Source: a virus (Duplodnaviria; Caudoviricetes). Taken from it: 64,000 bases of DNA. The notes under the pieces are model-generated. The model had not been told where the DNA came from and searched no databases. It saw only the letters and a program-made list of their open reading frames with translations. Every line of letters begins with the position of its first letter. The stretch's first letter is position 1. The DNA is taken from IMG/VR virus record IMGVR_UViG_3300025401_000012. One strand, written 5' to 3'. Shown in pieces: positions 32,103 through 55,245 of this stretch. Both the position numbers and the translations under genes were made by a program.

Positions 32103-32131
32103 ATTGTATAGGGTTAAATGGTTAAAGTCAA
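32103..32131 (-). promoter_or_regulatory. Sigma70 promoter TTGACT-N17-TACAAT, probably leaderless
   Basis: The -10 box ends 7 nt before the ATG at 32096. Confidence 0.7.
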
Positions 32132-33669
32132 TGATTTTTATAAATTTTCTTTTTCAAAAATTCCAAATTAGATGGAAGTGTTTTGGTATAATTGTCAATT
32201 ATGGTTTTTCTCTTTTTCCATTCTTGGACAATATGTTTTAAAAATTCATAATTGATTTGATTTCGATCTTTTAATTGTTGTATCTTTAGATCAGATAACG
32301 GGTTATATCCCATGCCAGATAAAATTCTAATATTAAAACTAAGCTGATTTGAATGTAAATCTAAATCAGTTGATAAATTTTTAAATTCGGTAGAATCTTC
32401 TAAGTAGTCGATTTCTTCTGTCACATATTTCCAATAGTCGCTATCTTTTCTTTTGGAAAATGCATAATGTGCCGAAACAAAATCTCTCCAGCTATATAAT
32501 TCTTGTTTCGATTGATTATTGAATATATCCTTGTCTATAGTATTGATAAAACAATCTTTTACTGACAATAAAGATATTGCTCTCATAATGTTGTTATGAG
32601 TTACCATTAAACCTGTAGATCTTAATGGTTCTAAAAAACCAGAAGTTAGTCCTATAGCAAGCACATTCTTATACCATGATTTTTTTCTTACTCCGGGTTT
32701 AAAACTAATAAATCTTGGTTCGATATTATCGGCTCGGTCCCCATATGTGATGCGTAATCCTTCTTTGAATTCTTGTAATGCTGTTTCGTCGTCGACAAAT
32801 TTGCTAGAAAAAACATAACCAGCCCCAATTCTATCCCATACTGGGATATTCCATAACCAGCCATTTTTTAATGTTGTACAATCTGTCCACGAGTTTAATT
32901 CTGTTTCTTTATCAACATACGGAATATTAGTAGCTATAGCTCTATCATTTATTAATTTGTTAGAAAAACTTTCAAAAGGAACTTCTAGTGTTTTTTCTAT
33001 TAAAGTAGCTTCAAACCCAGTGCAGTCAATGTATAAGTCGGACTTTAATGTACCATTATTTTTTGTAATAATACAATCTATTTCTCCTATACCATTTGTA
33101 CGACATTCTATTACATCGTCTTCTAAATGAATAACTCCGTTTGGTAATGCTACTTTTTCTTTTAATGTTAAACCAAATTTATAAGCATCCATATGATAGG
33201 CTTTATCGTATTTGAAATTCCAATTAAGGACATCGTTACGATCGGTTAGTTTATTCTGCACAATCATTTCGTGGGTATCGTCGAAATATTTAGAAAATTC
33301 AGTAATATCTATATCGGGATATATCTTTGATACTAAAAAGAAATCTACAGGGCTAAAGTTTTCTACTGAAGATGCTTCTGGTTTTAATACATCGTAATAA
33401 GATGATGATTCGCTTAAAAAATTTGTAAATTTAATAGATGTTTTGTAAGTAGCATTAGCCTGAGGCATCCAGTCTTCGTCTTCTATATCAAGCATTTCTA
33501 AATAATGATTAATTGTTGCTAGTGACGACTCGCCTACACCCATGATAGAAACATTTTTAGATTCTACTAATGTAATTTTTAACTGAGGAAATATTTTTGA
33601 AAACGCAGCTGCTGTCATCCATCCCGATGACCCGCCACCGACTATAGTAACTGAATTAATTTTTGACAT
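32128..33669 (-). CDS. Tryptophan-halogenase-like flavoprotein
   Basis: IVGGGSSGWMTA, GVGESS, YIDCTGF, GWLWNIP (WxWxIP), GFLEPLRSTG. Confidence 0.85.
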   Translation of the reverse strand: MSKINSVTIVGGGSSGWMTAAAFSKIFPQLKITLVESKNVSIMGVGESSLATINHYLEMLDIEDEDWMPQANATYKTSIKFTNFLSESSSYYDVLKPEASSVENFSPVDFFLVSKIYPDIDITEFSKYFDDTHEMIVQNKLTDRNDVLNWNFKYDKAYHMDAYKFGLTLKEKVALPNGVIHLEDDVIECRTNGIGEIDCIITKNNGTLKSDLYIDCTGFEATLIEKTLEVPFESFSNKLINDRAIATNIPYVDKETELNSWTDCTTLKNGWLWNIPVWDRIGAGYVFSSKFVDDETALQEFKEGLRITYGDRADNIEPRFISFKPGVRKKSWYKNVLAIGLTSGFLEPLRSTGLMVTHNNIMRAISLLSVKDCFINTIDKDIFNNQSKQELYSWRDFVSAHYAFSKRKDSDYWKYVTEEIDYLEDSTEFKNLSTDLDLHSNQLSFNIRILSGMGYNPLSDLKIQQLKDRNQINYEFLKHIVQEWKKRKTIIDNYTKTLPSNLEFLKKKIYKNH

Positions 33670-42221: not shown

Positions 42222-44942
42222 TTAACCTCGAGCAATCTTTAACCAACGAGCTAGTTCATCATGGTATGATTCTTTAACACCGTTTGTATTTGGCATAGAT
42301 GTACCATCTTTTCCAATAGTTGTTCCACTAGGTATCAATTTACTACCAAATAAATCTTTACCATCTGGGCCTGTAACTGGTGATGGAGATGTTTTAAATT
42401 TACCAGAATTATCTGTAGTAGTTCCTGCAGGGCTTGATGCTGTTCCAGATTTGTCAGCAGCCTTTTTCTCTCCAGCAACTGAAGTTGCAGCTGCTTCAGC
42501 TGCTTTCTTTTTATCAGCATCTGACACTGGACCTGCTGCGGTTCCTGGACCACTAGGAATAGTAGTTGCAGCGTTACCGCCTTTGTTTGGATCTAGATTA
42601 GAACTGTTAGAATGATCAACTTTGGCGATAACTTGATCACCGTGCGCTACAGCTTTGGTCCAGGCTGGATCTACATCTTTAGGATCGTGTGCTTTTTCTA
42701 ATGCACGAATCTTGTCAATGATTGCTTGCTGTTCTGGAGTTACTTTACTAGCCGATGCATCTGGAGTAGTTGTAGGAGTATCTCCTGTTGTTGTACCAGT
42801 ATCAGCAGATCCTATTCCACTATTATCACCGCCACCACCTGTTGTTGTAGGTTCTGGAGTATCATCTCCGCTTAATGCTGCCGCACCACCGATACCTAGT
42901 GCTGTAGCACCTAACCCAGCTTTAATTGGATTCTTAGCAATTGCAGCTCCGGTCTTAAGCCCAGCTTTTTCAGCACTAGATAATGCTTTGCCTCCGGATC
43001 CGCCCATCTTAGCTAGTCGTTCTGCAGCTGCTGGACTTGCACCACCCTTAACAGTAGATCCTATAAATTTACCAGCACCTTTAACAGCATCTTTACCCAT
43101 GTTCCACAATGCACTTCCTAGTCCTTCTACAATTTCAACTTCGCCTTTTTCATAAGCATCGTTAATAACTGATATAGTAGTTAAGTCTGTTACTTGTTCA
43201 CCGATACCATTATACATATAATAGTATTCGTCTAGATAATATCTTTGTTCTAGTGTTTCTCTAATTGCAGCTTTAGTTTCAATTAATTGTAAACGTTCTT
43301 GTAAACTACGAATACCTTCGGCAACTGTTTGCTGGGATTCTTTGATTCCAGCTTTGCCATATGTTGCTGGGCCTGGTAATCCGTCCGGAGTAAGACCTTG
43401 CGATTGTTGCCATGCTACTAATTTTTGTTTTGTTTCTGGACCCATCATACCATCTGGTTTTGCACCAATTATTTTTTGTAATTGCATTAGTTTTGCATCA
43501 CCGCCAGTTGTTCCTGTCGGAGATGCAGCATCTCCAAATTTACCAGCTTTATAATCACGTGCTAGATTAGCAGCATCTAACCCCATTGATACTGCACCAC
43601 CTACTCCAGGCACTAGACTTAATGCGGCACTAACACCTGCAATTCCTGCGCCAGTCCAATCACCTTCTTGGGCACGTTTGATAGCATCTACAGTACCAAC
43701 AACTAATCCAACACCTGGAATTAATTTGCTTAACATTTTACCACCAGCTTTTGCACCTGCCTTAGCAGCCACTTGTGCAGCCGCTTCTTCAGCACTCTTT
43801 GCAATAGGAACGCCAGCTTTTTGTAAACCAGCGGCAATCTTTGGTGCTTCGGCAGCTGCTGCTGGCGCTGTTTTTGCTATATCTGCAACTCCGGTAGATG
43901 CAGCTTTCATCTCAGGTGCTGCATACTTTACATTACTCACATTACCTTGCATTTGTCCGCCACTAAAATTAGGAGCGGCTTTTGGAACTTCTGCTTTCGG
44001 AACTTCTGCAGCAGGTAATTCTGGTGCTTTATATGAAGCACGGCCAGCTTCAACATTTGCGCCAGCTGAACCTCTAGCGGTCAACGGCTTATCCAATGGA
44101 TCAGCAACATTATATTTTGTTCGCATAAATCCAGGAAGATTTGGATTATCTGCGAGTTCATCTAACTGATAGCCAAAACTTTCAACAAGGCTTTGTGCAA
44201 TACCTGAATTAAATTCTGTACCTTCTCTGTATAGTTGATGATACAAATCAGTTCCTCCACCGGCTAAACCAGTAACAGCAGCACCCGGTAACCCTCCTAC
44301 TACAGCACCAGGGATTGCGCTAGCACCTGTTGCCAGTGCAAGTTCTTTCCAATTAAGTGATTTATTTTTAGGTTTAGGAGTTGGTCCAGGAGTTGGTCCA
44401 GGAGTTGGTCCAGGAGTTGGCATTGGCGCAATATCGCCTTTTATTGTTGCTTCTAGTTGTGCAATTAGTTCTTCTAATTTTTTAGCATCATCATTTGCAA
44501 CAGGAGTTGGTCCAGGCGCTGGGGCCGGAGCAGGAGTTGGTTTGTCTATATCTACCAATGCTTTAGGATCGACATAGGCATACCCTCCTTTGTCAATAAT
44601 TTGTAAACCGGCTGCACGAATACGTGCTGCATCCTTTTGACTTTCTCCAGGACCGCCTGATTGCATCCACTTAAATGGATATCCTTTAGGTTGGGGAGTA
44701 CCGATCTCACCGCCATCGTCTCCGTAAAAAATTTGTCCAGTTTTTGGATTAATAGCTATTCCAAAACGCGGAATTTGATTCATTGGTGTATTTGCTATTT
44801 TTTTAACATCGGCAATCGCAGCTGATTTAGCATCATCTGATTTAAATTTATCGTATGCAGCACGTTGCAGATCTGTATCAGAAGGAGGTTTGCTTTCTTC
44901 TGCAATGTGATCCAACCTTGTCATTAAATCTCTTAAGTTCAT
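42222..44942 (-). CDS. Large putative internal/ejection protein with peptidoglycan-binding domain
   Basis: Start MNLRDLMTRLDHIAEE (GGGG RBS). PG-binding-like LQKIIGAKPDGMMGPETKQKLVAWQQSQGLTPDGLPGPAT, Gly/Ala hydrophobic hairpins and many (I/V/L)xE sites. Confidence 0.65.
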   Translation of the reverse strand: MNLRDLMTRLDHIAEESKPPSDTDLQRAAYDKFKSDDAKSAAIADVKKIANTPMNQIPRFGIAINPKTGQIFYGDDGGEIGTPQPKGYPFKWMQSGGPGESQKDAARIRAAGLQIIDKGGYAYVDPKALVDIDKPTPAPAPAPGPTPVANDDAKKLEELIAQLEATIKGDIAPMPTPGPTPGPTPGPTPKPKNKSLNWKELALATGASAIPGAVVGGLPGAAVTGLAGGGTDLYHQLYREGTEFNSGIAQSLVESFGYQLDELADNPNLPGFMRTKYNVADPLDKPLTARGSAGANVEAGRASYKAPELPAAEVPKAEVPKAAPNFSGGQMQGNVSNVKYAAPEMKAASTGVADIAKTAPAAAAEAPKIAAGLQKAGVPIAKSAEEAAAQVAAKAGAKAGGKMLSKLIPGVGLVVGTVDAIKRAQEGDWTGAGIAGVSAALSLVPGVGGAVSMGLDAANLARDYKAGKFGDAASPTGTTGGDAKLMQLQKIIGAKPDGMMGPETKQKLVAWQQSQGLTPDGLPGPATYGKAGIKESQQTVAEGIRSLQERLQLIETKAAIRETLEQRYYLDEYYYMYNGIGEQVTDLTTISVINDAYEKGEVEIVEGLGSALWNMGKDAVKGAGKFIGSTVKGGASPAAAERLAKMGGSGGKALSSAEKAGLKTGAAIAKNPIKAGLGATALGIGGAAALSGDDTPEPTTTGGGGDNSGIGSADTGTTTGDTPTTTPDASASKVTPEQQAIIDKIRALEKAHDPKDVDPAWTKAVAHGDQVIAKVDHSNSSNLDPNKGGNAATTIPSGPGTAAGPVSDADKKKAAEAAATSVAGEKKAADKSGTASSPAGTTTDNSGKFKTSPSPVTGPDGKDLFGSKLIPSGTTIGKDGTSMPNTNGVKESYHDELARWLKIARG
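44377..44420 (+). repeat. 12-bp tandem repeat GGAGTTGGTCCA, about 3.7 copies (PTPG linker)
   Basis: Read directly; a related PAPAPGPTP linker lies at about 44505-44540. Confidence 0.9.
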
Positions 44943-44965
44943 TATTTTTCCCCGACTTGATATAT

Positions 44966-45817
44966 TTATTTTACTGAGCATTTAGGCACTAGTTTACCGT
45001 TTTTAGTTTGCATGCCTGTTTGAACTTGTCCTGCACGACACACACTAGTTTTCTTTTTTGGCTTAATTGTTTTAGGTGCTGGTAACACATCTTCACCGAT
45101 ATTTTTATCTATTCCTCGACTAGCAACTCCGCCTTGCTTACGTTTTTTAGCAAGTTCGCTAATACCGTGGCGAATTTGTTCCAAATTTTGTTCTAGCCCC
45201 ATGAACATACCACCCTTGGCTTTTGCACAAATTTGTTCCCAAGCAAGTAAATCGTTTGACTCTGCTAATTCAGCAAGCTCTTTTAGTTGAGCACGAGTGC
45301 GCATGATACGATCTTTAAGTGTTGCTGGATTAGCTTTTTCGTGACTATGAATTAATGGATTATTTGGATCTTCAGAATCCATAGCAATTGGAGCTTCGTC
45401 TACTACATAATTACCCATACCAGGACCAACAGTAGGTGCCTTAATTGCACCGTGTGTGCTCATTGGTATATCAAAATTTTCTTTCATTAATACACGTTTA
45501 GCAATAACACCAGCGTACTGATTAATCAATTGCTGTTTTCGTGTGCTTTCTTCTACTTGTTCTTGTTCAACTTCGTGAAAAAATTTATTAAGTAAACTTG
45601 GTTTACGTTCCGTAACGGGAGCAGATTCTTGCTTTTGATAATGTTGCATTGCCATTTGTACAGGTAATGCAACTTTATGTGGATCTTTACCTTCGTGCAA
45701 ATTTTGCACAGTGGCATTTTTATCTACAATAGATAAAAACTTAGCCATGTCATTAGCACCAGCTACAGGCTTTGTAGCAACACTATCCATAGCCTGTAGT
45801 ATGCGCTTCATGTCCAT
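44966..45817 (-). CDS. Putative internal head protein
   Basis: MDMKRILQAMD N-terminus; LHE, VEE, MKE, VDE and IGE sites. Confidence 0.55.
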   Translation of the reverse strand: MDMKRILQAMDSVATKPVAGANDMAKFLSIVDKNATVQNLHEGKDPHKVALPVQMAMQHYQKQESAPVTERKPSLLNKFFHEVEQEQVEESTRKQQLINQYAGVIAKRVLMKENFDIPMSTHGAIKAPTVGPGMGNYVVDEAPIAMDSEDPNNPLIHSHEKANPATLKDRIMRTRAQLKELAELAESNDLLAWEQICAKAKGGMFMGLEQNLEQIRHGISELAKKRKQGGVASRGIDKNIGEDVLPAPKTIKPKKKTSVCRAGQVQTGMQTKNGKLVPKCSVK

Positions 45818-45821
45818 CGGA

Positions 45822-47525
45822 TTATCCCAATAGACGCTTTGTCAATGCACGGATTTGATCAACTTCACGATTTTCAACTAACGCTGGTTTTTCAGCACGA
45901 TTTAAACGAGCTAGTTGTTCTTGCATACGTGTAAAATCTGTAGATTCTTTTACGGTTTCTTTTGCTTTTTTACCAGAACGTAATGCAGCTAAGTCTGATT
46001 TCTCAATCTTGCCATCATGATCAGCATCGATCTTTTCTTGATTGCCTGGCAAATCTTTAACAGCTTTTTTCTCTGCCATATAAGCAGTAGTTTCTTTGAT
46101 GTTCTTCCACATAGCGGCTGCAGCAATTTTCTTACCTTTCTCACCGCCACCAGCTTTCTTAGCAACATCTTTAAAACTCTTGCCTGGCTTACCGATATCT
46201 TTGCCTGCTTTAGCTTTTTTAACTGTAGCAGACTTTTCAGCCTTGCTTAGACCTGCACTTGGTTTAGCTTCGGAAACTTTCTTTGCTCTACCTGTAGGAG
46301 TAGTAGTCGTTGCATATTGATGTATTTGATCAATCTTTTTATGATTGCCTTTTTCAAGAGCGTCCTCTGCTCCTTGTTTTAAGTTTGCACCAGGGCTTTT
46401 GCTTTTGCCAATCTGAGCTACTTTTATAGCAGAGTCTTGACTTCTTTGACCACGAGGTGCGGCTTCTTTAACAGCCTTGCCACCCTTTTCGTCTTTACCA
46501 AGACGTCCGGCGATAACATCACCGCGTGTAATTTTGTCATATGGTTTAGCATTGTTGGCTAGGTTACCGTCGCCTTTCTTAGACGTTTTAGATTTAGCTT
46601 CCATTACAACACCTGGACACTCGTAAATGCCACCACCGTTTAGGTGCGGATGTTGATGGTAGCATTCTCCCATTGCACCATGTGTAATAGTACCGCCACA
46701 TGATTCACATGCTTCTTTGTGATGCATTGCTAATTCTAAATTGCCTGATTTGTGATGTTTTGCATATTCGCAAGCATGGTGATGTGCCATGTTACCAGGA
46801 GCCATTTTGGCTTCATTGGTTGTTGTTTTACCATCTTTGTGAATAGTTTGTTTACCAGGATTTGACTTGCCCCATGCTTTAGATTCTTTTTCTGCAGCTT
46901 TATCCATTGCACGATCACCTGCTTTATCAGCACTACTACGTGCTTTGGCATGTGATTTTGTACGATCATTATCACTGTGTGGCTCATCTGTGAAACGATC
47001 TGGATTATGTTTGTGAGTAATTGTACTACCTTTTTTAGTAGTCGTGCCACCTGTGCTACTACGCTTTTCATAGTCGCCGTTATCATCTGATTTTTTGTTC
47101 TTCCAATCAAATGCGTTTTCTGCCATTTTAGCAGCATCTGCTTTTTTAAGAGCTTTAAGTTTTTCTTTAGCCTCGTTTAAACGGAATTTAAGAACACGTT
47201 TTTGACTTTCACTAATTGGTGCATGATCAACAGCTTCGCCGTACTCACCAATTTTCTTTTCATAAGCTAGATAATGGTAAACACTAGCAATATTAGTAGC
47301 AGCAATAGTAATTTTGCTTTGTACCCATGCTTCTAATTGTTCGTCATCATCGATATGTTCTTGTAAATTGGTAGCATAGTTAGCTAACTTAATTAGCTCT
47401 TGCTTGGCCATTGCGCCTTCTTGGTCGCCGTTACCTTCAGCTGGCCCTTCTAGGCTAGGGTCTGCACCCATATCTGGCATGTCTTGATCCATTTCTGGTG
47501 CTTCTTGATCTAATTCTGGTGGCAT
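45822..47525 (-). CDS. Putative prohead core/internal polyprotein, Lys/His-rich
   Basis: About 11 (hydrophobic)-x-E sites separating short modules, a His/Cys patch and an EF-hand-like DADHDGKIEKSD. TAAATA at 47550. Confidence 0.6.
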   Translation of the reverse strand: MPPELDQEAPEMDQDMPDMGADPSLEGPAEGNGDQEGAMAKQELIKLANYATNLQEHIDDDEQLEAWVQSKITIAATNIASVYHYLAYEKKIGEYGEAVDHAPISESQKRVLKFRLNEAKEKLKALKKADAAKMAENAFDWKNKKSDDNGDYEKRSSTGGTTTKKGSTITHKHNPDRFTDEPHSDNDRTKSHAKARSSADKAGDRAMDKAAEKESKAWGKSNPGKQTIHKDGKTTTNEAKMAPGNMAHHHACEYAKHHKSGNLELAMHHKEACESCGGTITHGAMGECYHQHPHLNGGGIYECPGVVMEAKSKTSKKGDGNLANNAKPYDKITRGDVIAGRLGKDEKGGKAVKEAAPRGQRSQDSAIKVAQIGKSKSPGANLKQGAEDALEKGNHKKIDQIHQYATTTTPTGRAKKVSEAKPSAGLSKAEKSATVKKAKAGKDIGKPGKSFKDVAKKAGGGEKGKKIAAAAMWKNIKETTAYMAEKKAVKDLPGNQEKIDADHDGKIEKSDLAALRSGKKAKETVKESTDFTRMQEQLARLNRAEKPALVENREVDQIRALTKRLLG

Positions 47526-47552
47526 GAGTATACTCCGTTTATCTTTATATAT

Positions 47553-48188
47553 TTAGCCTCTTTTAACGGCGGGCCCACCAAATAAGCTGGTACCTTTAAT
47601 ATCTAAACCGTTTTTGGCTGTTCCATCTGAGTTTTTAGGTTGGTTAACTTTGGGTTGCGGCGGTGCTTTAGTACCTGACCCAGTTGCTACACTACCTGTA
47701 TAACTTTTTTTACCACGTGCCTTACCAGGACTAATGTGTGGATTTACTACTGTTCCAATATTAGCAGCACTAGTAGCACCTACTGTAGCCGATTCTGTTA
47801 CACCATGTTTTTTAGCGGCAGCAATACGTGCATGAAGATGATGCAATCCATGTTCCATACTTCGCGCTTCGCGTTCAGCACTAGTAAGATTTTGTTCGCG
47901 GTCTGCGTATTGCCAACCATTGCCGCCTAATGATTTATATTTTGCTAGCATTCTAGCATATTCGGCTTCTAGTTCTGGAAGATTAGCATGATCTTTTGCT
48001 GTAGCATCTTGGGCACGTTGATGTGTAGCCTGACGGTCTGCATCACGTTTTTCTTGATCTTGACGACGTAATTCATCATGTTCCGGATCGCCGTGTACAC
48101 GTAAGTTTTTAAATTTAGGATTATTCTTTTGTAAATCTTTAAAAAATGACATCATATCATTTTCGTTCATTAGCTCTCGCATTTTCAT
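47553..48188 (-). CDS. Putative internal head protein
   Basis: MKMRELMNE N-terminus; internal VTE|S site. Confidence 0.55.
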   Translation of the reverse strand: MKMRELMNENDMMSFFKDLQKNNPKFKNLRVHGDPEHDELRRQDQEKRDADRQATHQRAQDATAKDHANLPELEAEYARMLAKYKSLGGNGWQYADREQNLTSAEREARSMEHGLHHLHARIAAAKKHGVTESATVGATSAANIGTVVNPHISPGKARGKKSYTGSVATGSGTKAPPQPKVNQPKNSDGTAKNGLDIKGTSLFGGPAVKRG

Positions 48189-48415
48189 TTCTTAATTCCT
48201 CTGTATCCAGTGCCGACAGCACGTTCGCCATTCATAAACTTAGGTAAACTAAACCACAACTTGAACCATTCTTCAGTTCCCGGTTGTATATTTTGTTCAC
48301 GCATGATTTTTGCTTTTTCTGTACCAGTTATACTGATATTACTTCCGCCGTAAGGTTGCAGGCCTTTAAATTCATTAACGCCAGCTAACTTCTTAAGACG
48401 TGCTAATTCATCCAT
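48185..48415 (-). CDS. Putative internal head protein
   Basis: MDELARLKKLAGVNE N-terminus. Confidence 0.55.
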   Translation of the reverse strand: MDELARLKKLAGVNEFKGLQPYGGSNISITGTEKAKIMREQNIQPGTEEWFKLWFSLPKFMNGERAVGTGYRGIKK

Positions 48416-48789
48416 TATACACCGTACTTGTTCTTTTTAGTTTTAGCCACAGGACTTGCGGTATGGGTGTCATCGGGTTCACGGCTAGGTGTACGCGGGC
48501 GTACTTGATGATATTCTGTAGGAATAGCACTATGCACTTGTTGAATCATTTCGTGCTCTTTATCTGTATATGGATGTAAAGTCCACATAGTCCCCATCCA
48601 GCTTTCGTGATCGAGGTCTAATTTTTCTTTACTACCATCAGCCATAGCTAGTGCCATGCCAGTTCTTAATTGATGATAGCTAGGAAACCAACCTCCGGGA
48701 TCACGTTGACGACTAAACCCCTGATGAACAGCATCGTGATGTTCGTGTGGTTTGCCAGATCGCTCAACAATAAATTCTTTAGCTCTCAT
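48415..48789 (-). CDS. Putative internal head protein, paralogue of the C-terminal domain of the upstream gene
   Basis: MRAKEFIVE N-terminus; ends SPVAKTKKNKYGV. Confidence 0.6.
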   Translation of the reverse strand: MRAKEFIVERSGKPHEHHDAVHQGFSRQRDPGGWFPSYHQLRTGMALAMADGSKEKLDLDHESWMGTMWTLHPYTDKEHEMIQQVHSAIPTEYHQVRPRTPSREPDDTHTASPVAKTKKNKYGV

Positions 48790-50063
48790 TATATTCCGTA
48801 TTTGTTCTTTTTAGGTTTAGCTACAGGGCTAGTAACATTACCGCCGTCTGCTTCATTACTAACGCTATCGCTTATATGTGTAATAGCTCCTGCCCCCATT
48901 GTTTTAGCAGCGTCTTTTACCTTTTGCATTTCTGCATCAGTGTATGCTGTAATTAATGGATCACCGCTCATAGCACCTGCGCGAGGCATGTCTGGATTAG
49001 CCATAGCAAGACCAAATCTATATTGCATGTATGGACTACCGTTGGCTTTGTTCATGCTGATGTTAGGAATACTCATGGCATTTTTTAATGCTTGAATATG
49101 TACATGGTGTAATTCTTCCGAACCTCTGCCAGCATATGGTACATCGCCTTCTGCTAGTTTTTTACGCATAAATTCTTGTGCTCTCATTTCTCGTATTACC
49201 TTATTAGCATATTTAACTGAATTTTCAGAAGTCTTAGTATATACTTGTTTAACTTGTTTAGAGCCTTCACCTCTTTCAATTTTTTCAGGATCTTTAGCTT
49301 TTTCTTTTTCAAAATACTTACGCATTTCTTCAGTACTTGCTGAAGATTTTTTAACAACAGGTTTATTAGATTTTGCTAAAAATCCCATCAGGCTTTCATC
49401 AGCTACTTTTTCTTTTTTAGGCTTTTTACCAAAAGTAGGATCAGCCATGCGCACTCCTGCTTTGTGCATTAAGTCTCTAACCTCATTATCATCGAGTTCA
49501 GGACTCATAGCATCACGCCACGCACTGAATTTTTCATCATCTGTTGCGTTAGGATTTTTAAGAATATCACGCATTGGTGTAGCACGTGGGCCTTCTTCTT
49601 CTCTACTAGGATCGTTAGTTTCCTGACGACTAATAACGTTTAAATTATCAAAATTAAATGGAATATTTCCTTGTTTATCGGGCACACCATTATATTGTTT
49701 AACATAACTTAAACTATTAACTTGATCGGCACCGACAACAACAGTACAATCACTATAGCCCATTTCATTTAACTTACGCAGTACACGAGTTAAATCAGGC
49801 ATTTCTTCTGTTGCTGTATGAAATATGTGTCCGTGTTTAGGAAACACTTTTTTGTATATATGCAACTTTTCTTCTGGAGTTATTGGATCATCTTTTCCTA
49901 CGGTACGACTAACAACAAAATAAGGATCTGCGCCCGATTCATTAGCTTGCGTAATAACACTGCTAGCTAGGTACATATGGCCTTTATGACCCATACCGCG
50001 CCCCCATCCTACTACGCAGGATTTGCCTTCTCCGGTGCGATTAAGAAATTCACGTAACAGCAT
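48789..50063 (-). CDS. HxGH (cytidylyl/NMN-adenylyltransferase-like) nucleotidyltransferase with fused C-terminal module
   Basis: Start MLLREFLN at 50063; VVGWGRGMGHKGH, VVGADQV, RATPMR; ends SPVAKPKKNKYGI. Confidence 0.75.
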   Translation of the reverse strand: MLLREFLNRTGEGKSCVVGWGRGMGHKGHMYLASSVITQANESGADPYFVVSRTVGKDDPITPEEKLHIYKKVFPKHGHIFHTATEEMPDLTRVLRKLNEMGYSDCTVVVGADQVNSLSYVKQYNGVPDKQGNIPFNFDNLNVISRQETNDPSREEEGPRATPMRDILKNPNATDDEKFSAWRDAMSPELDDNEVRDLMHKAGVRMADPTFGKKPKKEKVADESLMGFLAKSNKPVVKKSSASTEEMRKYFEKEKAKDPEKIERGEGSKQVKQVYTKTSENSVKYANKVIREMRAQEFMRKKLAEGDVPYAGRGSEELHHVHIQALKNAMSIPNISMNKANGSPYMQYRFGLAMANPDMPRAGAMSGDPLITAYTDAEMQKVKDAAKTMGAGAITHISDSVSNEADGGNVTSPVAKPKKNKYGI

Positions 50064-51915
50064 TGTCTTTCCTTGGCGCCCAATTAGCTTGATCGATTGT
50101 TTTGACAAACTGTCCTGGCAAATCGTGTTTAAATTTACCTCCAGGATGTGCTTGTACATATCCCTCTGGTTTAGTTTGTCGTATCCCACCATGTGTTCCG
50201 GAACTTAATGAATTAATAACTTTCATTTTTTCGTGTGTTAGTAATTCTACAGCACTTAATACTGCATCTAATCCTGGATGTGTTAATACTTTTTCAGCTT
50301 GGCTGTTGCTTAACTTAGTTTGCGCCCATTGAGCAAATTGTTGTTTAACTCCAGCAACACGTAAATTTTGATTATAGAATGAATACAACACATCACCTGG
50401 TTTACTTAAACCTGGCTGCCCAGCAATAAAACTATCAATTAACGATTTATTTTTCTTAATATAATCTTCTGCATGTTTTAATCCAGTATCATCTACTTTA
50501 GGTGGATGTTCGACATACGTTGTACCTTGCACAATAACATCTGGTGTTGATAGTTTTTCTGCATCAGGATACCGTGTTTCATCTGACCCGATATGTGTGT
50601 AATAACCGGTTGCAGCTACCATAACTTTAGCGTTGGCAATACGTTTGCCTAATGCACTGCCTACTGGAATATGAAAACTAGTAATGTTAGGTCTAAAATC
50701 ATATTCGTTAGTCGATTGATTTAGTTGTGCTGGTTGTAACGGACTAAACAATATTCCGCCTTCGATGTATCCTTTTTTAGGACTGATCTTTTCAAAGTAC
50801 GGCCATAGATCTGCAAGGCCTTGCGCAAATGCACGACGTTGTTCTTCTTGTCCAGGTTGTGTGTTACCTGTACCTAGTACAAACATGGCAACGTCATCTG
50901 GATCATTCATCATAGTAGTTACACCACTCTTGGTATGGGTAGTACCACGCTTCATATAATCCCAAGCGTTCTTGGGGAACATATGGAACTTGCCGTCTTC
51001 ATCCCTGCCCCAATAAATGACAGGACTACCATCCCACTTTAATTCTATTGTGCCACCTTTGCTAGTCATATGACGCAGACGTTCAACCGCATGTAATCCA
51101 CCAGTACTACCATTTGTAAATACTAGATCTTCAATGTGCTGATACTTCCGACCTACAGCAGGAGCTGCTGCTTCATTAATTTGTTTAGGACTAACAGCTT
51201 GCCAACTTGCTCCACTGCTTGCAGATTGAAATATTTCATTTCTGCGAGTTTCATCGGGGATTGCGTTCATAATACTTTCAACACTACCCAAATCTTTAGC
51301 ATTTGCATGTGGCCCAATTAAACGTTTAGCAATTTCATCTAAATCGTCACTAATAAATTCTGATTTCTTCCCCATAGCATCTCGGGCATAAAGTCCTTCG
51401 TCCGGAGACCATAACATACCTTGACTACTTGCTAGTGCGTTCATCATCATTTGTTTGTGAACGCCTTTATAAGGACTGCCTTGTGGAATGGAATGATGGT
51501 GAAATTTATGAACCCTTTCGGCATTACCAACAGCTTTAATATCGACTTGATAGAATTTACCTTTATATGGTAAAAGAATATGTACAGTTACTCCGGTTTT
51601 TTTAGTTTGTAAACCTTTGCCTTGCAAATAGTGTTCTAATTCAGCTCTAGTAGTTTTACCATCTTTAGTGCCAAACTGTTTCATCAGTTGACCTAAGTCA
51701 ACCATAACATCTAAATCGCCGCTCATTTTACCAGGAGTCGGTGTCGCTGCGCTTCCAATTAAGTGTACGCTACTTTGTATTCCGTGCAAATATTTGTTTG
51801 TTTCTTGGGCAAGATGCGCAGCAATTGCTTGATCGAATTCTTCGGATTCCGGCCAAATATTTCCACCTTCTAGAATAGGTTTCCTAACATCGAGGAACAA
51901 TTCACGTAATAACAT
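50050..51915 (-). CDS. Pol-beta-type nucleotidyltransferase fused to an ATP-dependent RNA-ligase-like domain
   Basis: N-terminal IGS...GDLD...QVD. C-terminal motifs I (KWDG), III (YIEGGILF), IV (EGYV) and V (FVK). The domains are joined by an INE|A site. Confidence 0.7.
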   Translation of the reverse strand: MLLRELFLDVRKPILEGGNIWPESEEFDQAIAAHLAQETNKYLHGIQSSVHLIGSAATPTPGKMSGDLDVMVDLGQLMKQFGTKDGKTTRAELEHYLQGKGLQTKKTGVTVHILLPYKGKFYQVDIKAVGNAERVHKFHHHSIPQGSPYKGVHKQMMMNALASSQGMLWSPDEGLYARDAMGKKSEFISDDLDEIAKRLIGPHANAKDLGSVESIMNAIPDETRRNEIFQSASSGASWQAVSPKQINEAAAPAVGRKYQHIEDLVFTNGSTGGLHAVERLRHMTSKGGTIELKWDGSPVIYWGRDEDGKFHMFPKNAWDYMKRGTTHTKSGVTTMMNDPDDVAMFVLGTGNTQPGQEEQRRAFAQGLADLWPYFEKISPKKGYIEGGILFSPLQPAQLNQSTNEYDFRPNITSFHIPVGSALGKRIANAKVMVAATGYYTHIGSDETRYPDAEKLSTPDVIVQGTTYVEHPPKVDDTGLKHAEDYIKKNKSLIDSFIAGQPGLSKPGDVLYSFYNQNLRVAGVKQQFAQWAQTKLSNSQAEKVLTHPGLDAVLSAVELLTHEKMKVINSLSSGTHGGIRQTKPEGYVQAHPGGKFKHDLPGQFVKTIDQANWAPRKDNAVT

Positions 51916-51917
51916 TA

Positions 51918-52289
51918 TTAATCCTTGTACTTGCCAGTTTGTATGTGTTCACGTGTTTCTTCGTGTAGTTTTTTACATGCATCTTCACATGTTTTATCTT
52001 CTAAAATATCGGGCAATTCACGGATAGGAAATTTTTTCTTATATAATTTATAACATTCGTGCATTGTTTCTGCAAACATTTTAGCATCTGTAGGTTTTTT
52101 ATCTTTAATACGATCTATGCACTTCATTAAAACAGGAAACACATAACGACGATAAACATGGTCATCATTGTGCATAAAATGCAATAGATCTTCTACTAGA
52201 TCGTAGTCGATTTCACGCTTGTCACCTTGTTTTTTAACAAAATCTAACTCTTTAAAGTGAGCGTTTTCTAATAACTCTTGTATACGCAT
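51918..52289 (-). CDS. Putative internal head protein
   Basis: MRIQELLE N-terminus; TAAATA at 52336. Confidence 0.55.
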   Translation of the reverse strand: MRIQELLENAHFKELDFVKKQGDKREIDYDLVEDLLHFMHNDDHVYRRYVFPVLMKCIDRIKDKKPTDAKMFAETMHECYKLYKKKFPIRELPDILEDKTCEDACKKLHEETREHIQTGKYKD

Positions 52290-52361
52290 ATTGGCCTCAG
52301 TTTTACATACCCAATAGAATGCTATGGATTTAGAGTATTTATCGCTTTTAGGATCAACGGG

Positions 52362-52976
52362 CTAGGCTTTAAGTATGCGTTCAATCTTGCTTATACTACT
52401 ACCCAAGTGCATTTTTGCCAATAATAAGTTGTTATCGCCTGTAATATAAAAGTGTGTACCACCCCAACTGCGCGGCTTTTGTAAATCTCTGATACAACTT
52501 TTAGTTAGCTTGCATTTTGTACTTTTATCAGCCCATTCGATAAATGCAGGGTTAGGTTGTGTAGTCTTACCCAATGTAACTCTAAAATCATAATTTATTT
52601 TAGGCATTATGATTGTATCGGATGTTAAATTATTACCTGCTGGTTCGCAAATATACTTTACCCTGCTGGCATCTAATTTAGCTAGTTTTTCTACGTCTTT
52701 TTTATTGTTAGAATACACACTTATCCACGGACTTTCTACTCGCAAATCTATATCTGCCATTTTAGATAATTCGCTAGCTAATGAAATAGCATATATTTTA
52801 TCGGCTAACGTCTTAATAGAGCTAGATCGGTGAGGGATTGTGTTAGATGAATTTAATTCATCTATAATAGCACTAAATTCTTTATTTCGAAAGAACCCTG
52901 AACCACTGCATACCAGTACAATTTTGTACTGGTATACTCCTCTAAACAATTTTGTAGTAAGTTTTTTACGTAACAT
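52362..52976 (-). CDS. Hypothetical protein
   Basis: Overlaps the clpA 3' end. Confidence 0.55.
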   Translation of the reverse strand: MLRKKLTTKLFRGVYQYKIVLVCSGSGFFRNKEFSAIIDELNSSNTIPHRSSSIKTLADKIYAISLASELSKMADIDLRVESPWISVYSNNKKDVEKLAKLDASRVKYICEPAGNNLTSDTIIMPKINYDFRVTLGKTTQPNPAFIEWADKSTKCKLTKSCIRDLQKPRSWGGTHFYITGDNNLLLAKMHLGSSISKIERILKA

Positions 52977-55245
52977 TTAAATCTACTAATGATGGTGCAT
53001 TATCTACAGTTAAAAGTTGTACTTTTGATTCCTTAGGAGTAGATACTAACAATAACTTATTGTCGGTTACAGTAATACTTAACAAACCGCCGTTCTTAAG
53101 TTCACCAAACAACATTAATTTAGCCAACGGACGTTTGATTTCTTTATCAATAACACGTTGTAACGGACGAGCACCCATTTTAGGATCAAATCCGTTAGTA
53201 ATAAGCCAGTTAGTACTTTCCTTATCTAGTTTAATCTTGATACCCTTTTCTTTAACTTGAGCACGAAGTTCGTCCATGAATTTAACAATAACTTTAGTCA
53301 TTGATTCTTTGCCCAATCTGTTAAATGTCATGATACCGTCTAAACGATTACGGAATTCTGGTGTAAAGAATTTCTTTAAATCTTTATCACTGTATTCTCT
53401 ATCCTGTGTACCAAACCCAATTGTATTCTTTTCAGCATCTTGTGCACCAGCGTTGGTAGTAAGAATAAGAATTAAGTTACGGCAATCTGCTCGTTTACCG
53501 TTTGAACCAGTAATAAAACCATTATCCATCATTTGTAATAATACTGTTGTAACATCTGGGTGAGATTTTTCAACTTCATCAAACAACAGAACAGCATTTG
53601 GATTTTCTTGTATTTGTGTAATTAGTAATCCGGCATTTTCTTCAAATCCAACATAACCCGGAGGGCTACCGATTAGCTTAGAGATGCTATGCTTCTCTTG
53701 GTATTCTGACATATCAAACCGTAATAGTTTAACACCTAGATGCTTGGCAAGCGACTTGGCAGTTTCAGTCTTACCGCAACCGGTTGGCCCCATGAACACA
53801 AACGATCCAATTGGTTTATTTTCTGATTTTAATCCTGCTTGTGCAACCATAATTTTATCTACAACTTCTGTAATAGCAAGATTTTGCCCGTACACTTCTG
53901 CTTGTAAATTAGTTTCTAAAGTAGCAAGATTGCTAGATTCAGTTTCCATAATTTTTTCTTCAGGCATTTGAATCATTTTAGCAAGCTCAAATTGAATCTC
54001 GTGCTCACCGATTACACGTTCTTCTGCAATTTTAAGATTAAAACGCGAGCATGCTACATCAATTAAATCAATAGCTTTGTCTGGAAGTTTTTTATCTGTT
54101 TGATATTTGACAGATAATTTAACAGCTGCCTGCAATGCATCATTACGAATTTTAACATTGTGGAATGTTTCGTAATACTTTTTAATACCCTGTAATATGC
54201 TTAAAGTCATTTCTTGTGTAGGTTCATCGACTGTTATGCGTTGGAAACGACGCATTAATGCACGATCCTTTTCAAAATGCTTACGATATTCTTCCCATGT
54301 TGTGCTAGCAATGACTTTAATATTGCCTTTACTTAGTGCAGGCTTCATCATATTAGCAAGATCGTTAGAACTATTTCCGGCACTGCCTGCACCAGAGATC
54401 ATGTGTGCCTCGTCAATGAATAATACAGTCTTACCTTTCTTTTGTAGAGCTTTGATAACATGTTTAAAACGTTCTTCAAAGTCTCCGCGATATTTAGATC
54501 CAGCTAACATAGCTGAAATATCTAAACTATATACTTTGTAATCTTTTAGGAAATCAGGAACATGCCCTTTGACAATATTATAAGCAAGTCCTTCTGCTAT
54601 AGCAGTTTTTCCTACGCCAGGATCGCCTACTAAGATTACATTGTTTTTGCTACGACGACCTAATGCTAACGCAATGTTTTCTAATTCATCAATACGCCCG
54701 ATAACCGGATCAACTTTTTGTTTTTCTACTAGATCATTTAAGTTACTAGTAAATGCTTTCAACGCTCGATCACTTTGTGAATCTTGTGGACCTTCTTCAT
54801 CTTCGGAAGTATCATTTACATTGTTTAGGTAATCTGCAAACTTATCTTTATCTATTTTGGCTTTATTAATATAGTAATAAGACCAGCTACGTTTTTCACC
54901 GATCATTGCTAAAAATACATCGGTAGGTTCGATTTTCTGTCTGCCATTAAACAGTACTTGTGTAAATGCACGATTAAGCACACGTTCAACACTTTGTGTT
55001 TTTTTAGGTTTAACAACAACATCTTCAATAGTAATTTCTTGGCACTTGTGGTGTAGATAATTGGCCAAATCATCTTTTAATTCTGCAAGATTTGCACCGA
55101 ATCCTTCTATAGTATTACTAAAAGTTTCATCTGCTAACATAGAAAATAACAAATGTTCAATTGTTAGATATTCGTGATGTAATTTTTTAGCTGTATCTAT
55201 TGCACGTTCAAATACAGCTTGTAAGTTATCACTTGGTTCAACCAT
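52966..55245 (-). CDS. clpA: ClpA-type AAA+ unfoldase
   Basis: Clp N-domain HEYLTIEHLL, GDPGVGKT, FIDEAH, GPTGCGKT, LIGSPPGYVG, FDEVEK, IGF loop (TIGFG). No long M-domain. Confidence 0.92.
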   Translation of the reverse strand: MVEPSDNLQAVFERAIDTAKKLHHEYLTIEHLLFSMLADETFSNTIEGFGANLAELKDDLANYLHHKCQEITIEDVVVKPKKTQSVERVLNRAFTQVLFNGRQKIEPTDVFLAMIGEKRSWSYYYINKAKIDKDKFADYLNNVNDTSEDEEGPQDSQSDRALKAFTSNLNDLVEKQKVDPVIGRIDELENIALALGRRSKNNVILVGDPGVGKTAIAEGLAYNIVKGHVPDFLKDYKVYSLDISAMLAGSKYRGDFEERFKHVIKALQKKGKTVLFIDEAHMISGAGSAGNSSNDLANMMKPALSKGNIKVIASTTWEEYRKHFEKDRALMRRFQRITVDEPTQEMTLSILQGIKKYYETFHNVKIRNDALQAAVKLSVKYQTDKKLPDKAIDLIDVACSRFNLKIAEERVIGEHEIQFELAKMIQMPEEKIMETESSNLATLETNLQAEVYGQNLAITEVVDKIMVAQAGLKSENKPIGSFVFMGPTGCGKTETAKSLAKHLGVKLLRFDMSEYQEKHSISKLIGSPPGYVGFEENAGLLITQIQENPNAVLLFDEVEKSHPDVTTVLLQMMDNGFITGSNGKRADCRNLILILTTNAGAQDAEKNTIGFGTQDREYSDKDLKKFFTPEFRNRLDGIMTFNRLGKESMTKVIVKFMDELRAQVKEKGIKIKLDKESTNWLITNGFDPKMGARPLQRVIDKEIKRPLAKLMLFGELKNGGLLSITVTDNKLLLVSTPKESKVQLLTVDNAPSLVDLNVT

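Follow-up and report, generated by a model that had tools for sequence, protein, structure and literature searches.

To our knowledge, the capsid-targeting sequence (CTS) of bacteriophage T4, a textbook device for loading proteins into a phage head, has been recognized on just a handful of small T-even phage proteins. We analyzed a 64,000-nucleotide stretch of a tailed phage (Caudoviricetes; IMG/VR record IMGVR_UViG_3300025401_000012), hereafter the window, in which nine tightly packed same-strand genes, A to I (42222-52289, minus strand; the cassette), mostly begin with a short leader of similar form. This leader is conserved among relatives of the window, occurs on proteins of different fold, and recurs in the T4-type head module of a related genome. 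We assign a probability of roughly 0.6 to the reading that the cassette carries T4-style capsid-targeting propeptides on the hypervariable internal-protein locus of a divergent, T4-related giant phage.

In T4, every internal head protein is directed to the core by the CTS, which a protease inside the prohead removes after a Glu residue (PMC5694885, PMC9026906, PMC3012670). Residues 4 and 7 of this peptide drive targeting, residues 8 and 10 processing, and in Alt the C-terminus is processed as well as the N-terminus (PMC9026906). Mullaney and Black (1996), as cited in PMC3012670, PMC9026906 and PMC5694885, place the CTS on IPI, IPII, IPIII and Alt and attribute its removal to gp21. The matching hydrophobic and Glu positions of the T4 CTS are those conserved in the cassette leaders. 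Like the T4 CTS (10-19 residues), these leaders are short N-terminal peptides on unrelated proteins, in which hydrophobic residues flank a Glu, and several of them end in a candidate (L/I)-x-E site; the carriers likewise vary between related phages, an enzyme is among the predicted cargo (Alt in T4), and the head genes of a relative of the window, designated G001, include a scaffold, S77 protease, portal and Gp23 capsid protein of T4 type. Unlike in T4, the core motif is one residue shorter, with Arg or Lys ahead of the Glu, the leaders come in two or more types, and one peptide type also occurs at a C-terminus. The cassette clusters nine genes in 10 kb, whereas T4 has three small scattered ones, and its predicted cargo consists of large multi-domain enzymes with apparent extra internal cut sites.

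Variable internal-protein genes of T-even phages were reportedly described by Comeau and Krisch in 2005. As in those genes, close relatives differ in what the cassette contains but keep the targeting peptide and the flanking core genes, and a role in the arms race with host defences may be presumed for the products as for T-even internal proteins; the cassette differs in its position between a Clp-like gene and dsbA/gp43, in its much larger proteins and in belonging to a giant uncultivated lineage. In phiKZ and SPN3US, the propeptides of ejection proteins are cut at (S/A/G)-x-E (PMC5694885, PMC7411985). In these phages a gp21-related protease cleaves many head-internal proteins after Glu, N-termini are conserved among paralogues, and some ejection proteins have a membrane segment after the propeptide. 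Their propeptides are mostly longer than 100 residues with a small P3 residue, whereas the cassette leaders span 8-15 residues and share a hydrophobic P3 with T4; the S-x-E sites that precede the C-terminal ends of C and D may depart from this P3 preference.

The N-termini that an earlier note on this DNA had singled out as capsid-targeting-like are all in place on the minus strand, namely MRIQELLE (A), MLLRELFL (B), MLLREFLN (C), MRAKEFIVE (D), MDELARL..VNE (E), MKMRELMNE (F) and MNLRDLM..IAEE (I). For two of these genes the longest open reading frame (ORF) gives a wrong start: C begins at 50063, since the B stop and C start form TAATG directly before MLLREF in most relatives, and I begins at 44942, since dozens of I-family homologues begin MNLRDL. 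A, B, C, D, F and I open with M-x-x-[QRK]-[ED]-[LF]-[LFIMV] in exact register. When the regular expression M..[QRK][ED][LF][LFIMV] was run on each ATG followed by 50 or more codons, in all six frames of the 64 kb, nine matches were obtained, eight of them inside the cassette; two of these eight are internal to genes, one at the start of the D-like module in C and one 38 codons into G. Among called gene starts, the motif opens six of nine cassette genes versus none of 67 others (post-hoc Fisher p = 4e-7), an enrichment over other N-termini that bears out the earlier note.

Because this expression was written after the data had been seen, we also scored all 76 window N-termini against T4 propeptides read from NC_000866 (IPII/III MKTYQEFIAE, IPI, Alt MELITELFDE, gp24 MAKINELLRE and gp22 MLKEQLIAE) as an a-priori test. 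The cassette genes ranked 1, 2, 3, 4, 7, 11, 12, 21 and 55 of 76 (Mann-Whitney p = 1.2e-4), with F the best of all; the leader of D, MRAKEFIVE, is the closest match to MKTYQEFIAE of IPII/IPIII. The cassette proteins share no mutual similarity, except that D is a paralogue of the C-terminal module of C (E = 2e-6), and since the carriers are otherwise dissimilar, the shared start does not reflect paralogy. The carriers differ in fold as well, comprising PolX, ligase-like, HxGH and peptidoglycan-binding proteins. A second peptide type, DELARLKKLAG followed by V-N-E, opens E, and a close version of it ends I after a conserved V-x-E.

A single scan of IMG/VR yielded 59 syntenic loci. Across these loci, the flanking genes are 80-98% identical to those of the window and the cassette genes 30-90%, and the number and identity of cassette genes change from locus to locus between the conserved flanks. 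An orthologue of A is present in 58 of the 59, the remaining locus (L048) starting inside B. The relaxed leader motif occurs in 59/59 members of the A cluster, counting the window copy, and in 126/138 members of the merged B/C/D cluster; the tag is also found on families absent from the window, such as a 675-amino-acid (aa) protein starting MRVKDIVSKFIAE. Conservation in the I family (38 distinct metagenome homologues) amounts to 2.1-4.3 bits per position over the first 15 residues and to about 1.2 from residue 16 onward. Leader residues stay while their codons vary (Arg as CGT, CGA, CGC or AGA; Leu as TTA, CTA, CTG or TTG), and because codons change synonymously among orthologues with the residues kept, selection acts on the leader peptide rather than on the DNA. 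In one locus (L016:3414-6365, plus strand), B and C form a single 984-aa frame from which the B stop and the MLLREF leader of C are gone at the junction; this fusion could be real or an assembly error.

The relation of tag to fold is clearest in B. Its AlphaFold model (predicted local distance difference test, pLDDT, 78 overall) has an unstructured stretch at residues 1-17 (pLDDT about 44) followed by a confident domain, so that the leader is predicted to lie outside the fold. The model of domain 1 aligns with DNA polymerase beta (Pol beta; Z score 11.6, 187 aa) and with PolX of African swine fever virus (ASFV; Z score 11.1, root-mean-square deviation 3.3, 161 of 176 PolX residues); in its G-S and D-x-D motifs, G54, S55, D67 and D69 are invariant and D125 nearly so, and we class the domain as a predicted minimal family-X polymerase. 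Domain 2 matches Pfam DUF6267 (7e-17). The top 23 structural matches of its model (pLDDT 94) are without exception ATP-dependent ligases of RNA or DNA, though at intermediate scores (Z 5.0-6.9, Foldseek E at least 0.03). Across 49 diverse sequences, K-W-D-G, E-G-Y-V and a later Lys do not vary; on this structural model, we describe the domain as ligase-like, not as a proven ligase, and DUF6267 as a distinct family. PDB sequence searches with B, C, I and a profile of B returned nothing useful, and a literature search for DUF6267 found no paper mentioning the family. PolX and ligase of ASFV, and LigD of bacteria, constitute minimal gap-filling plus nick-sealing repair. B resembles them in combining polymerase-like and ligase-like domains, here joined in one product, but unlike in those systems it shows no detectable sequence similarity, and its DUF6267 domain belongs to a distinct family with middling fold scores.

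Searching the DUF6267 domain of B against 1.8 billion representative proteins retrieved 403 relatives. Among 76 stand-alone representatives, 60 have a leader of at least nine residues before the domain and 16 begin at the domain itself. Forty of the 60 led proteins show the motif plus h-x-E (h, hydrophobic), typically as M-R-A-x-E-F-L-x-E followed by A-A-x-P-K-V-G-R, and the end of this leader (h-x-E↓AA.P.VGR, the arrow marking the candidate cut) is the same sequence as the inter-domain linker of B. Judged from these sequences, the leader is an optional, detachable add-on in the DUF6267 family. In Methylophilales phage Melnitz, the homologous pair of enzyme genes has T4-like starts, e.g. MKKFSEIIE, and the three enzyme types (PolX, DUF6267 and HxGH) travel together in other lineages too.

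The relative G001 (345 kb, 86% identity in B) links the tag to a head module. Its head genes follow T4 order, with a T4-type portal, a 79-aa ORF, a 294-aa acidic ORF, a Peptidase_S77, a scaffold-like ORF and a Gp23-family capsid protein (Pfam PF03420, Peptidase_S77 of the gp21 family, 5.6e-27; PF07068; PF07230). The start of the scaffold-like ORF resembles that of T4 gp22 and the start of the capsid protein that of T4 gp23. The 79-aa ORF, in the position of T4 core proteins gp67/68, begins MILRELF, as the leader of B does. When G001 was searched with a DNA pattern for the tag, 19 matches were obtained versus 12 for the reversed control, with six in the cassette and one in the head module; of 11 others that were read, about six lie at plausible gene starts, including another I-type leader and another Pol-beta-type nucleotidyltransferase. 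The gene at about 31743 (minus strand), far from the cassette, starts MNFKDLMTRLQAIEE, an I-type leader, and tagged genes are therefore not confined to the cassette. Complex prediction for the G001 scaffold-like protein with its A orthologue scored 0.00, which speaks neither for nor against binding.

Candidate cut sites follow several leaders. Counting L, I, V or M at P3, a conserved h-x-E comes after the leader in A (L-L-E), D (I-V-E), E (V-N-E) and I (I-A-E), and in F mostly as L-x-E among orthologues. The earlier note had also claimed dense internal sites of this kind, which is true of part of the cassette: their density is 1.83 per 100 aa versus 1.29 elsewhere, and A, G, H and I exceed shuffled sequences (z 2.4-3.5), G being enriched in the pattern hxE[ASG] as well (z 3.3), but B, C and D do not. 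Its proposal that the products are cut into modules finds support at two junctions only. In the disordered linker of B, [ILV]-N-E↓A-A-A-P-x-V-G-R is present in nearly all relatives, and in 39 C sequences [ILV]-R-E↓M-[RK]-A-x-[EQ]-F precedes the D-like module. The internal ATG of C at 49187 has TAAATA 23 nucleotides (nt) upstream with AAGG between, and the D-like module might also be made alone from this nested start.

We infer core binding, cleavage, packaging and ejection, together with all enzyme activities, along the following lines. The leaders, of one type with 8-9 residues (M-x-x-[RKQ]-E-[LF]-h-x-E) and another with 15 (M-N-L-R-D-L-M-x-K-L-D-x-I-A-E), would bind the proteins to the scaffolding core during prohead assembly, like the T4 CTS; a gp21-type prohead protease would remove them after the Glu of h-x-E, and the trimmed proteins would remain in the head until infection, then exit along with the DNA. 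Cutting B at [ILV]-N-E↓AAAP would yield a PolX-like and a ligase-like enzyme, and cutting C at [ILV]-R-E↓M-R-A-x-E-F an HxGH transferase and a small D-type module, so that B and C would supply a nucleic-acid end-repair or nucleotide-transfer kit. The basic, Lys-rich F, G and H may sit on DNA, and I, peptidoglycan-binding and with membrane-like hairpins, could act in the cell envelope during entry.

The comparative tests that we ran all fit the payload locus envisaged by the earlier note, with CTS-type propeptides, variable content and real enzymes: the tag stands on non-homologous proteins, is selected at the protein level, lies outside folds and is optional in the DUF6267 family, the leader of C is lost when C is fused behind B, and the tag recurs on the head-module ORF of G001. 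Modular cutting and late timing are the less supported parts. The mechanism would be that of T4. Novelty appears to lie in how large the locus is, in a cargo of multi-domain enzymes that seem to contain cut sites of their own, in a further peptide type that is also found at a C-terminus, and in a leader that DUF6267 proteins may have or lack. More tentatively, the cassette may encode an injected, polyprotein-like enzyme kit, in which the N-terminal leaders and one related C-terminal peptide would load precursors into the prohead, the head protease would free PolX, DUF6267 ligase and HxGH enzymes that act, by repair or modification, on the incoming genome or on host RNA ahead of any phage gene expression, and I, binding peptidoglycan and inserting into the membrane, would aid envelope crossing. 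On this more tentative reading, the optional leader on DUF6267 genes in many other lineages would imply that aquatic T4-like phages commonly carry repair enzymes loaded in advance. We know of no phage that injects a polymerase-ligase fusion.

If the propeptide reading is correct, uncultivated giant T4-like phages use the CTS device for a large, fast-changing cargo that includes a polymerase-ligase fusion. The leader would then serve as a sequence-only marker for "first-strike" proteins (anti-defence, repair, entry) in metagenomic phage genomes and as a function-linked handle on DUF6267. Additional targeting peptides and cleavage sites of this kind could also be of use in engineering protein delivery by phage heads.

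Several observations weigh against the propeptide reading. Cyanophage P-HM1 has a homologous adjacent pair of enzyme genes without the leader, from which it follows that these enzymes also work as ordinary, presumably unpackaged proteins; a search for cyanophage virion data on the homologous enzymes returned nothing relevant. The link to the protease rests on G001, because the window itself lacks a head module. G and H fit the tag only loosely, the leader of C has no clear h-x-E after it, and the enzymes B, C and D have no excess of h-x-E over shuffles. The h-x-E-G-G after the leader of B also begins the PolX domain in leaderless relatives, which weakens it as a cut site. Short amphipathic starts of the form Met-Lys/Arg-x-x-Glu-Leu are fairly common in AT-rich phages, and some six more leader-like starts stand at plausible gene starts elsewhere in G001.

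These last points would suit a leader that is a generic amphipathic N-terminal helix serving translation initiation, folding or self-association, with no head targeting and with the cassette encoding ordinary intracellular enzymes and DNA-binding proteins. Starts such as MQVKELI, MKINELI and MEIKELF on scattered G001 genes, and the leaderless enzymes of P-HM1 and of 16 of the 76 DUF6267 representatives, agree with such a helix. It explains neither the motif on six of nine cassette genes versus none of 67 others, nor the sharp end of conservation at residue 15 and the h-x-E that follows, nor the loss of the C leader behind B and the identical start on the head-module ORF; moreover, I has a peptidoglycan-binding domain and no signal peptide, which would be hard to use from the cytoplasm. 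We regard this explanation as unlikely.

The conserved h-x-E after the leader and in linkers would also suit a propeptide that is removed by a protease for zymogen control, or one that targets proteins to the tail or baseplate instead of the capsid interior. I resembles virion proteins that act on the envelope, and peptidoglycan-binding domains are also present in tape-measure or tail-tip proteins. The gp21-type protease of T4 is active only inside the prohead (PMC5694885, PMC9026906), so cleavage by such a protease implies entry into the head. As for zymogen control, neither the length of the leader, which the model of B shows as disordered, nor its distance from the active sites would let it block an enzyme, and we consider either variant improbable, somewhat more so than the generic helix.

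The cassette is flanked by a ClpA-like ATPase gene and a 204-aa ORF on one side and by dsbA and a T4-type DNA polymerase gene on the other. AAA+ unfoldases read short N-terminal tags, and the leader might be a recognition tag for the phage's own ClpA-like unfoldase, encoded two genes before A, which would act in timed degradation or in unfolding before transfer rather than in scaffold binding. This 759-aa ClpA/B-like AAA+ protein (PHROG "ATP-dependent protease", 1e-248) is encoded one gene upstream of the cassette in all 57 of the loci that reach that far, and holds an I-G-F tripeptide, which we take to be comparable to the ClpP-docking loop of ClpA. Nothing but adjacency, however, connects the two, and the DNA polymerase gene across the cassette is an equally constant neighbour; the tag resembles T4 protease propeptides and not any defined ClpA signal, and it recurs on a head-module ORF as well as on DUF6267 genes of contigs with no visible Clp gene, all of which makes a Clp tag very improbable. 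That the conserved 5′ ends are DNA-level recombination sites for gene swapping, with the peptide a by-product, would accord with hypervariable gene content between near-identical flanks and with the DNA-level similarity of the B and C starts in the window, but we reject it as scarcely credible because leader codons change freely and synonymously across orthologues while the residues stay.

Table 1. Features of the cassette and related elements in the window (positions in the 64,000-nt stretch; arrows mark candidate cut sites).
Feature	Position	Strand	Length (aa)	Description
A	51918-52289	-	123	First cassette gene; leader MRIQELLE at 52266-52289, ending L-L-E
B	50050-51915	-	621	Leader MLLRELF.. 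at about 51868-51915; residues 20-240 family-X polymerase-like, residues 255-621 DUF6267 ligase-like with K-W-D-G
B linker	51172-51180	-		INE↓AAAP between the two domains
C	48789-50063	-	424	Leader MLLREFLN.. at 50028-50063; N-terminal GHKGH nucleotidylyltransferase-like domain
C internal junction	ATG 49187	-		VIRE↓MRAQEF; opens D-like module ending ..KKNKYGI
C basic tail	48789-48850	-		Shared with D
D	48415-48789	-	124	Leader MRAKEFIVE at 48763-48789
D basic tail	48415-48480	-		Shared with C
E	48185-48415	-	76	Second leader type MDELARLKKLAGVNE at 48371-48415, ending V-N-E
F	47553-48188	-	211	Basic, isoelectric point (pI) 9.7; leader MKMRELMNE at 48162-48188
G	45822-47525	-	567	Lys 14.5%, pI 9.2; acidic N-terminal stretch; internal MAKQELIKL (ATG 47411); downstream His/Cys-rich segment and conserved C-terminus ALVE↓NREVDQIRALTKRLLG
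G His/Cys-rich stretch	about 46550-46730	-
H	44966-45817	-	283	Basic, pI 9.3; start MDMKRILQAMD.., a relaxed I-type leader; Cys-containing C-terminal motif
H C-terminal motif	44966-45060	-		Cys..G..K.GK.VP.C
I	42222-44942	-	906	15-residue leader MNLRDLMTRLDHIAE at 44898-44942; Pro-rich linkers; Gly/Ala-rich hydrophobic segments 201-229, 403-421 and 432-455; PG_binding_1 at about 506-541
I C-terminal peptide	42225-42269	-		VKE↓SYHDELARWLKIARG; related to E leader
TAAATA	52336-52341	-		47 nt upstream of A; candidate late-promoter core
TAAATA	49210-49215	-		Inside C, before internal ATG
TAAATA	47550-47555	-		Before G; overlaps F stop codon
TAAATA	44963-44968	-		Before I; overlaps H stop codon
ClpA/B-like gene	52966-55245	-	759	AAA+ protein
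Halogenase-like gene	32128-33669	-	513	Adjoins dehydrogenase-like gene

Domain analysis of the remaining cargo revealed further candidate activities. The N-terminal domain of C matches PHROG "cytidyltransferase" (4.3e-22 and 2.8e-8) with no Pfam match above cut-off; it carries G-H-K-G-H, a motif of the H-x-G-H type, and we describe it as an HxGH nucleotidylyltransferase-like domain. C and D share the basic tail S-P-V-A-K-x-K-K-N-K-Y-G-[IV], with a conserved S-x-E about 20 residues before it. All three of F, G and H are basic proteins rich in Lys. A conserved Cys-containing motif closes H and reads P-C-W..G.K.K.G...V-P-N-C in relatives; this motif and the His/Cys-rich stretch of G may be metal-binding modules. 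I matches PF01471 (PG_binding_1) at 33 bits against a cut-off of 23 (E = 6.7e-8), has weak PDB matches to peptidoglycan-binding domains, and shows three Gly/Ala-rich hydrophobic segments by hydropathy without a signal peptide, features that would suit a protein delivered from the virion into the envelope. Comparison of the cassette proteins with Pfam and PHROG gave no match to internal virion proteins or Alt, and no homology to IPI, IPII or IPIII; since it is the tag that defines the T4 family, whatever the cargo, the cassette proteins may still belong to it. A search of a protein atlas with A and D gave no usable match.

The TAAATA motifs to which the earlier note drew attention do occur four times on the coding strand of the region, and TAAATA also stands 21-30 nt before three tail-fibre-like genes in the window. 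Against a late program, and thus on the debit side of the propeptide reading, TAAATA also precedes non-structural genes and does not separate late genes in the window, and two of the copies overlap stop codons. The motif is not enriched in the window (65 copies versus about 138 expected from composition), and with copies before both gene classes it was dropped as evidence for late timing. The exact T4 late promoter TATAAATA is absent from both strands of the whole 64-kb window. Upstream of several small window genes, CGTATAT comes after TAAATA, which may mark a separate class of promoter. In G001, the 79-aa head-module ORF (92877-93120) and a Pol-beta-type transferase gene (about 322571) each have TAAATA just 4 nt upstream of the ATG, a spacing that possibly indicates leaderless late transcripts.

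The DNA polymerase of the window is at most 49% identical to that of any phage in the collection, with giant phages as best matches; its closest cultured polymerase relatives are Sinorhizobium phage Phosso, first, and Agrobacterium phage Atu_ph07, second. A near-identity DNA search of the phage collection with the region found nothing. Given this polymerase divergence and the absence of a near DNA match, the window appears to derive from an uncultivated, distant T4 relative of giant-phage type, whose habitat is probably freshwater. In Atu_ph07, three MEL[RKQ][DE][LF] starts resembling MELITELF of T4 Alt lie in unannotated gaps at 313.5-317 kb. The window also encodes, next to a dehydrogenase-like gene, a 513-aa protein matching PHROG "tryptophan halogenase" (3e-130), unusual content for a T4-like phage.

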